From: a plasmid | Sequence record: NZ_CP077636.1 | Strand: one strand, 5' to 3' | Length of the DNA stretch: 38,247 bases | Part shown: positions 1,361 through 1,524 of the stretch, in pieces | Position numbering within the stretch: position 1 is the first letter of the stretch | How the letters are laid out: every line of letters begins with the position of its first letter | Position numbers and translations under genes: made by a program | The notes under the pieces: generated by a model | What the model saw: the letters and a program-made list of their open reading frames with translations, nothing else | Databases searched by the model: none | What the model was told of the DNA's origin: nothing

Positions 1361-1524
1361 AGGGGGAAAATGTTTTGGGTTTGGTGCAAAATGAGTTTAA
1401 AAAAACATATAAAAAAAGTATAAATAACATATAAATAACATATAAAAAAGGTATATATTAAGTATAGATTAAGTATAAAAAAGGTATAATTATAATAACA
1501 AAAACAAAAGACAAAGGACAAAAA
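1361..1524 (+). promoter_or_regulatory. conserved promoter/operator/leader block, copy A (long form)
   Basis: aaagggggaaaatgttttgggtttggtgcaaaatgagtttaaaaaaa + (catataaa(t/a)aa)x2 + ggtatatattaagtatagattaagtataaaaaaggtataattataat + leader aacaaaaacaaaagacaaaggacaaaaaATG. TATAAT -10-like hexamers and 11-bp phased TAAGTATA repeats. Confidence 0.65.

Follow-up and report, generated by a model that had tools for sequence, protein, structure and literature searches.

Promoter-plus-leader cassettes of a pVir-type Campylobacter plasmid and their complementarity to the small RNA CJpv2

Trans-encoded small RNAs (sRNAs) that pair over about 18-21 nucleotides (nt) within the 5' untranslated region (UTR) of an mRNA are known from Escherichia coli (IstR-1/tisB and OrzO/zorO) and from Campylobacter jejuni (CJnc190/ptmG). 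A comparable arrangement is described here for a plasmid sequence of 38,247 nt (NZ_CP077636.1), the whole of which is referred to as the window. Around positions 1361-1524 it carries the first of three near-identical long cassettes, each composed of an upstream arm, a promoter and a 28-nt leader, and it also encodes an sRNA, CJpv2, which contains the complement of this leader. As in the three systems named above, the sRNA is encoded separately and has a short perfect complement to the 5' UTR and ribosome-binding site (RBS) in an accessible loop. The outcome expected for the IstR-1/tisB type, a translational block combined with cleavage by ribonuclease III (RNase III), is also the one proposed for CJpv2. 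Unlike IstR-1, OrzO and CJnc190, CJpv2 faces three to five copies of one leader, copied together with the promoter in front of unrelated operons.

Other mobile elements offer further comparisons. The c4 RNAs of phages P1/P7 and the CI RNA of P4 are likewise antisense RNAs that act in trans on repeated sites and turn a gene set off, but their sites lie in one operon and the RNA is processed from the same transcript, whereas the putative CJpv2 targets stand at the start of separate operons, and CJpv2 is made from a promoter of its own and ends at its own terminator. FinP/traJ and CopA/repA also rely on a plasmid-borne stem-loop antisense RNA that occludes the RBS of a plasmid gene; in contrast to CJpv2, both RNAs are cis-encoded, fully complementary and directed at a single target. 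KorA/KorB of RK2 and omega of pSM19035 use a repeated site at many promoters, including that of the partition operon, and the candidate for such a site here is an 11-base-pair (bp) promoter unit. Those are protein-DNA systems, whereas the best-supported part of the present one is an RNA-RNA interaction at the leader. The kind of regulator, a trans-acting antisense sRNA, is already known; what is new is the CJpv2-leader complement and, as we infer, a regulon defined by a copied leader.

Cassette anatomy and complementarity to CJpv2

The window appears to be a complete pVir-family plasmid of C. jejuni or C. coli, with 99.6% identity to pVir of C. jejuni 81-176 around cassette 1. Alignment of the three long cassettes reveals near-identity from AAAAAGGGGGAAAATG (an A-run followed by GGGGG) through the ATG. 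In each of them, a 48-bp arm is followed by a variable run of 11-bp units closing in the -10 box and by the 28-nt leader; the main difference among the copies is the count of units. The run begins with CATATAAAWAA, continues with two copies of GTATAGATTAA and then GTATAAAAAAG, and closes in G(G/T)TATAAT. The shared leader reads AACAAAAACAAAAGACAAAGG(A)CAAAAA(G)ATG and includes a Shine-Dalgarno (SD) sequence, AAAGG(A/C), 5-9 nt before the ATG (Table 1). The downstream proteins of 114, 120 and 121 amino acids (aa) exhibit no mutual similarity by BLASTP, and searching the leader-bearing genes against Pfam and PHROGs yielded nothing usable. The claim of the initial annotation that three near-identical cassettes precede unrelated genes is thereby borne out. 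The fourth, partial cassette that it placed in the vegetative replication origin (oriV) shrinks to a 19-nt G-rich box at 33370-33388.

Three copies of the leader 18-mer AAAAACAAAAGACAAAGG are found on the + strand and one on the - strand, at 1117-1134 (four matches against 0.07 expected by chance, even with two mismatches allowed). A 19-mer of the arm also has four matches, against 0.03 expected: the three cassettes and oriV 33370-33388. Copies beyond those noted initially are the inverted leader at 1116-1144 and four promoters with 11-bp units that lack the arm (~6075-6147, 30090-30171, 30455-30520 and 35985-36060).

Transcription start sites (TSS) are available for strain 81-176, in which 70 of them were mapped on pVir by differential RNA sequencing (dRNA-seq; Dugar 2013, PMC3656092). 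Table S5 of that study gives UTRs of 28-29 nt for pVir0013, 0035, 0044 and 0046, of 27 nt for pVir0048 and of 31 nt for parA. The 51-mer ending at the pVir0035 TSS is identical to window positions 1447-1497, and the TSS homologous to cassettes 2 and 3 are those of pVir0046 and pVir0013, each with a 28-nt UTR. According to the same study, C. jejuni sigma-70 promoters have an extended -10 element and, instead of a -35 box, an A/T-rich pattern that recurs periodically upstream. The cassette promoters fit these Campylobacter criteria, with a -10 element G(G/T)TATAAT, exact 11-bp upstream units, a mapped TSS and an AAGGA-type RBS. Published TSS on 51-mers that are identical or nearly so show the cassettes to be modules of a sigma-70 promoter and a leader, and the 11-bp units can be read as an extreme, literal form of the A/T-periodic pattern. 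Across 63 long cassettes at 20 loci, the distance from arm to -10 box ranges from 79 to 137 in steps of 11; the number of units therefore changes by slippage, with helical phase retained. Scans for E. coli-type promoters and terminators miss these promoters, because there is no -35 box, and also miss 10-bp hairpins just 5' of cassettes 1 and 3, because these have no T-run. The hairpins are candidate terminators only.

CJpv2 was detected by Northern blot in 81-176 and is listed in Tables S5/S12 of Dugar 2013 (PMC3656092). The TSS step height there is 2740, compared with 8-55 for the TSS of the long cassettes and of CJpv1, an orphan-TSS sRNA candidate that corresponds to the transcript of one short-form cassette. 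The published length of CJpv2 in IA3902 is 168 nt. Window positions 1044-1094 are identical to the CJpv2 promoter 51-mer at 81-176 TSS 25268, and therefore the sRNA spans 1094 to about 1260 in the window. CJpv2 is thus an independently transcribed small RNA with its own promoter and terminator. Its predicted fold (-45.1 kcal/mol, z-score -4.3) comprises a long hairpin, stem-loop 1 (SL1), with the apical loop UGUCUUUUGUUUUUUGUCUUAU, followed by two hairpins and a GC-rich terminator hairpin. Nucleotides 28-49 have an unpaired probability of at least 0.7, and a segment of the SL1 loop reads UGUCUUUUG.

The complement of the leader lies mostly in this loop. Positions 1116-1144 and 1490-1518 form an inverted repeat of 29 nt with 90% complementarity, and one 18-mer of CJpv2 is the perfect complement of all three long-cassette leaders. 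The predicted duplexes extend from leader nt +2 to +22/23, including the SD sequence, with energies of -23.7 to -25.7 kcal/mol. The loop is predicted to be unpaired (p 0.7-1.0) and the leaders to be unstructured, with an opening cost of 0.4-2.4 kcal/mol, and the net interaction energy amounts to -16 to -17 kcal/mol; for cassette 1, the duplex energy is -25.7 kcal/mol and the net value after opening costs -17.1. The best predicted partner is the CJpv1 leader, at about -31 to -33 kcal/mol. The SL1 loop was also scanned against every 40-nt segment of both plasmid strands (25,318 segments). The CJpv1 leader ranked 1st, cassette 1 2nd, and cassettes 2 and 3 5th and 6th, the four z-scores being -6.4, -5.3, -4.7 and -4.7.

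Further evidence comes from relatives of the plasmid. The cassette-1 region has matches in 31 conjugative Campylobacter plasmids: 30 C. jejuni/coli plasmids of the pVir family, at 92-99.6% identity, and, as the most distant match, a C. novaezeelandiae plasmid at 72%. The comparison drew on ten plasmids in full and another ten contigs, numbered with an L prefix; clusters of the pVir0033 protein by themselves span more than 1000 contigs. CJpv2 and three or four long cassettes occur in every pVir-type plasmid examined, with a perfect complement of 18-19 nt. Identity over CJpv2 stays at 100% even where that of the neighbouring pVir0033 gene is down to 83-91% and that of the spacer to 73%. The C. 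novaezeelandiae plasmid has the leader UUAUAAUACGAAAACAAAGA(U/C)AAAGGAUA and, in the loop of its CJpv2 homologue, CCUUUAUCUUUGUUUUCGUUAUUAUAA; this homologue has the same promoter and the same plan of SL1, SL2 and terminator (z -3.8). The leader differs from that of pVir by three changes (A>G, loss of one A, C>T), each of which has its counterpart in the sRNA. Perfect pairing there reaches up to 19 nt for cognate partners (10-19 nt over four leaders), compared with 8-13 nt for non-cognate ones, and in a loop scan the plasmid's own leaders are the top three hits (z -8.6, -8.6, -7.2), the fourth leader scoring -5.2. In both lineages, the boundaries of the complement match the transcribed leader from TSS to SD. 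A third sRNA type, in C. coli (L014/L017), has its own loop sequence and a 19-nt complement to its own first leader. RNAalifold analysis of the three types retains an 11-bp SL1 stem, SL2 and the terminator, with one fully compensatory pair each in SL1 and SL2. The notion of a shared post-transcriptional control element, put forward in the initial annotation, is consequently supported in silico: the loop of the CJpv2 hairpin is the complement of the leader, and changes are mirrored in a divergent relative.

In the search for farther relatives, a contig search returned only a second C. novaezeelandiae plasmid, two metagenome scans returned zero matches, and the identity of the toprim protein in PLSDB falls from 88% straight to 40%. 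A Helicobacter cinaedi plasmid (L021) is without comparable cassettes. A homologue of the 114-aa protein with 62% identity is located on a 3.5-kb contig that begins 24 nt before the gene. An Rfam scan of the whole window at gathering thresholds returned zero matches.

Table 1. Positions of the cassettes, the sRNA and related features in the window.
Feature	Position	Strand	Details
Cassette 1 arm (AAAAGGGGGAAAATGTTTTGGGTTTGGTGCAAAATGAGTTTAAAAAAA)	1358-1405	+	outside the transcript of the cassette promoter
Cassette 1 promoter, 11-bp units CATATAAAWAA, GTATAGATTAA, GTATAAAAAAG	1406-1496	+	-10 box GGTATAAT, TATAAT at 1485-1490
Cassette 1 28-nt leader (5' UTR)	1497-1524	+	SD AAAGGA; predicted CJpv2 target; ATG 1525, 114-aa gene 1525-1869
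Cassette 2	4781-4925	+	arm 4781-4828, -10 4886-4891, leader 4898-4925, ATG 4926, 120-aa gene 4926-5288
Cassette 3	23486-23640	+	arm 23486-23532, -10 23601-23606 (TGTATAAT), leader 23613-23640, ATG 23641
Gene after cassette 3	23641-24006	+	121 aa; ssb next
sRNA CJpv2	1094-~1260	+	-10 box GATATAAT 1080-1087, TSS 1094
CJpv2 elements	SL1 1095-1166, SL2 1168-1193, SL3 1194-1219, terminator hairpin 1231-1245	+	terminator hairpin GCGGGGACACCCCGC
Anti-leader UCCUUUGUCUUUUGUUUUUUGUCUUAUAA	1116-1144	+	inside CJpv2, mostly in the SL1 apical loop; complement of the leader, mRNA 5' end through SD
Short-form cassette (CJpv1), no arm	30090-30301	+	-10 30160-30165, TSS ~30172, leader variant AGACAAAACAAAGACAAAGGAUUAAAG, 34-aa small open reading frame 30197-30301
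Short-form promoter, different leader, no arm	6075-6174	+	before 130-aa gene 6175-6567; 81-176 TSS pVir0048, 27-nt UTR
Short-form promoter of parA operon	30455-30545	+	ParA 30546-31214, then 209-aa putative ribbon-helix-helix partner 31224-31853; 81-176 TSS 16611
Short-form promoter of TrbM-family gene	35985-36078	+	gene 36079-36864
oriV box AAAAGGGGGAAAGTGTTTT	33370-33388	+	adjoins iterons; matches only the first 19 nt of the arm
Internal duplicate pairs	25466-25521 / 27888-27943; 26667-26885 / 28753-28971; 26041-26171 / 27634-27764

Proposed control by CJpv2 and competing explanations

Taken together, these features lead us to favour, with some reservation, a reading in which the shared leader is the target of CJpv2 and the sRNA represses all leader-bearing operons by occluding their RBS. 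The cassettes would be copies of one pVir-type regulatory module consisting of a promoter and a leader, to which the arm is added in the long forms. A sigma-70 promoter with variable 11-bp units would drive a 28-nt unstructured, A-rich 5' UTR, shared by four unrelated first genes and present as a variant before a 34-aa small open reading frame (sORF). This leader would serve as the recognition site for the abundant trans-encoded CJpv2, whose SL1 apical loop would pair with leader nt +2 to about +22, including the SD sequence. Pairing would block binding of the 30S ribosomal subunit, and the duplex would probably invite cleavage by RNase III. A single RNA could in this way repress all leader-bearing operons together. 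If such pairing and repression take place in vivo, their purpose might be, for example, to limit accessory-gene expression once the plasmid is established.

A wider version of this proposal is considered rather doubtful. In it, CJpv2 would be a master post-transcriptional switch whose regulon grew by the spread of cassettes and by co-evolution of leader and loop, perhaps reaching the repE mRNA and coupling replication control to accessory genes. One possible consequence would be a burst of accessory-gene expression in a new recipient before the sRNA accumulates. With regard to other regulators, the initial annotation had named CsrA as a possible binder of the leader, an idea that the published data do not support: none of the six CsrA peaks on 81-176 pVir, obtained by RNA immunoprecipitation sequencing of CsrA-3xFLAG, falls on the leaders or on CJpv2, although reads from the repeated leaders were possibly lost as multi-mappers.

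Several observations weigh against control of the leaders by CJpv2. In the SL1-loop scan, a few non-leader sites score near the leaders, because U-rich loops pair with many A-rich sites. Only three sRNA/leader types are present in the available data, and the covariation consequently rests on few events. The L014 type has lost the anti-SD CC, and the distant relative L022, a short contig, has different leaders on two of the genes. Gapped identity differs little between cognate and non-cognate pairs, since the sequences are of low complexity. The mirrored changes could also have arisen by gene conversion into the inverted 30-nt segment, without selection for pairing, because the cassettes evolve in concert. 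In the literature searched, no targets of CJpv2 were found; it appears there only as an expressed sRNA, and a study of a CjNC140 mutant lists Cjpv2 as 'cis: pVir0033', that is, as cis-antisense. In the same mutant, Cjpv2 is mildly down and pVir ssb, which belongs to the cassette-3 operon, is up, an anecdotal hint in favour of control by CJpv2.

The concerted evolution of the cassettes invites explanations in which pairing plays no part. Between pVir and the C. novaezeelandiae plasmid, the proteins behind the cassettes are 77-95% identical and the cassettes about 72-82%; within each plasmid the cassettes are nearly identical. To judge from these comparisons, they clearly evolve in concert. The window also lacks the pVir0044-0045 module of 81-176, both deletion endpoints lying inside cassettes, and its cassette 2 is a hybrid, flanked upstream as 81-176 cassette 2a is and followed by the gene that lies behind cassette 2b, the product expected of homologous recombination between two direct cassettes. 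Pure duplication with concerted evolution would explain this pattern, and the leader, being unstructured, would then be simply a good initiation region, its complement in CJpv2 a relic inverted copy with no regulatory role. We regard this as unlikely: the sRNA is abundant and transcribed independently, and the complement falls exactly in the apical loop of one of its conserved hairpins; the boundaries of the complement are those of the transcribed leader in two lineages, it follows lineage-specific changes, and the sRNA is more conserved than its flanks. The presence of the cassette-bounded pVir0044-0045 module in some plasmids and its absence from others, together with the hybrid cassette 2, could be taken as signs of gene capture along the integron-like lines suggested in the initial annotation, with the constant block as the recombination site and genes swapped behind it. 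Yet what stands behind the leader at the 20 loci is limited to four protein families (the 0013, 0035, 0044 and 0046 types) and the CJpv1 sORF; no integrase or tyrosine/serine recombinase is annotated on the ten whole plasmids, apart from IS607 insertions in one; no attC-like imperfect palindrome was found at the cassette borders; a separate promoter belongs to every cassette; and the pattern is one that ordinary homologous recombination between direct repeats of 150 bp would give. Integron-like capture is accordingly very improbable, and the cassettes are better described as sites of repeat-mediated gain and loss of modules. The recombinational reuse proposed initially is partly right: concerted evolution and module loss are seen, and an integron-like modularity is not supported.

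Two further explanations retain a regulatory role for parts of the system. CJpv2 and the CJpv1 sORF might constitute a trans-encoded pair resembling a type I toxin-antitoxin system, with the long-cassette leaders as bystanders. The CJpv1 leader is indeed the best predicted partner, also in the relative (z -8.6), and the 34-aa ORF (METINKLIFFEKFFKEKGFKIIKISENKFFIKNF) keeps its frame and length in all pVir-family plasmids examined, and 29/34 of its residues are shared with the C. novaezeelandiae counterpart. On the other hand, a hydrophobic membrane segment is absent from the peptide, which is K/E/F-rich; this speaks against a classical type I toxin. The three long leaders also retain a perfect complement of 18-19 nt, and a toxin-antitoxin pair is therefore quite improbable. 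Because the ORF is conserved in frame and length, CJpv1 is more likely to be a small-protein mRNA than an sRNA. The remaining alternative places control at transcription: the 11-bp units would be operators, possibly centromere-like, for a plasmid DNA-binding protein, most likely the 209-aa ParA partner, so that seven promoters would be co-regulated, perhaps alongside CJpv2. These units are present in seven promoters, including that of parA, and are absent from the other mapped promoters of the plasmid. The 209-aa protein has a weak NikA-like ribbon-helix-helix (RHH) Pfam hit (E 0.0024) and two beta-alpha-alpha motifs, and in the related H. cinaedi plasmid an annotated RHH protein comes after ParA. 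The partner shares 67% identity between pVir and C. novaezeelandiae, compared with 90% for ParA and 86% for RepE, and the units are changed in all C. novaezeelandiae promoters. Against this, C. jejuni sigma-70 promoters are normally A/T-periodic, and the units may therefore simply be an instance of this; the Pfam hit does not reach threshold, the protein has no PDB relative, and its single-sequence AlphaFold model is unusable, with a predicted local distance difference test (pLDDT) score of 40. The case for binding of the 11-bp units by the ParA partner is suggestive only, and operator control as a whole is a possibility to be kept in mind rather than the expected outcome. A further idea, that the cassettes mark the leading region in conjugation, was considered and dropped, as neither oriT nor the direction of transfer could be placed.

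Should repression by CJpv2 prove correct, an sRNA that has been an orphan since 2013 would gain a specific, testable set of targets on a virulence-linked Campylobacter plasmid. It would also illustrate how simply a mobile element can assemble a regulon, namely by copying a target site together with its promoter instead of evolving many pairings. The 11-bp units and the arm are candidate sites for a second, transcriptional layer of control, and the repeated promoter cassettes are recombination substrates that add or remove gene modules.

Arm, replication region and further observations

The 3' part of CJpv2 (third and terminator hairpins, 1176-1256) is duplicated at 20053-20133 with 91-100% identity, right after an ArdC-family gene; a terminator module seems to have been reused here. 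Within the anti-leader, a weak antisense TSS has been reported at 81-176 position 25295 (-), equivalent to window ~1121 (-). It may represent mis-mapped 5' ends of leader mRNAs instead of a real start, because the - strand at this site differs little from the leaders.

Conservation in the arm is confined to a core, AAAAAGGG(G/A)GAAAA(T/A)GTTT.GGTTTG, with divergence beyond it. No TSS within the arm is reported in the 81-176 pVir dRNA-seq data. A small ORF in the arm (ATGTTTTGGGTTTGGTGC..., with GGGGG as a possible SD) was considered and rejected, as a 1-nt deletion in cassette 3 shifts the frame and leaves an ORF of 7 codons. Our guess is that the arm is a phased protein-binding site. Copies and plasmids differ in the length of its G-run, from 4 to 6 G (1358-1376, 4781-4799 and 23486-23504; homologues in L001-L020), and a T/C difference with a 1-nt indel, TGTTTTGGG versus TGTTTCGG, is a polymorphism common to cassettes of different plasmids. 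Boxes similar to the iteron-adjacent oriV box are also found beside iterons in the C. novaezeelandiae and H. cinaedi plasmids.

Within the replication region, the 5' UTR and RBS of repE (window 32697-32740 (-); L002 31064-31103 (-)) resemble the 3' part of the leader, reading AGACAAAAGGCAAAAG in the window, and 16 nt of the repE RBS region in 81-176 are identical to the leader. In the window as in the C. novaezeelandiae plasmid, this region belongs to the ten best-scoring predicted partners of the CJpv2 loop, the C. novaezeelandiae copy having the lineage-specific ACGAAAACAAAG. According to these predictions, CJpv2 might also have an effect on replication control via repE. A T-rich stretch of oriV at 33640-33680 (ATCCTTTATCTTTTATCGTTTTTTATCGTTTTTTG) resembles the CJpv2 anti-leader, and its - strand scores like a leader (z -4.9). 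The stretch lacks conservation in the oriV of the C. novaezeelandiae plasmid. In the window, 17 consecutive A lie nearby, at ~33527-33545.

The iterons of oriV (32974-33308) also have copies (CGCAAAATGTCGGTATAA) elsewhere in the window, at 6756-6798, 8960-9000 and 9154-9196, on either side of the relaxase gene. One of these copies overlaps the mapped promoter of the virB2-like operon (81-176 TSS 34278), and in the H. cinaedi plasmid iteron copies occur upstream of the operon for the type IV secretion system (T4SS), at 12753-12961. RepE may, to judge from these positions, also regulate transfer genes or take part in handcuffing at iterons outside oriV.

The remaining gene content of the window includes a VirB-type T4SS, a MOBP relaxase, ParA, a Rep3-type RepE with iterons, ssb, a topoisomerase and many small uncharacterised genes. 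The region at 25.4-29.4 kb contains long internal duplications of up to 219 nt at 99% identity, and four tandem copies of the 15-mer AGAAATAGAAAGACG lie within an ORF at 27061-27119. Together with the rearranged blocks seen among the plasmids, these repeats suggest paralogous gene modules that are shuffled between plasmids.

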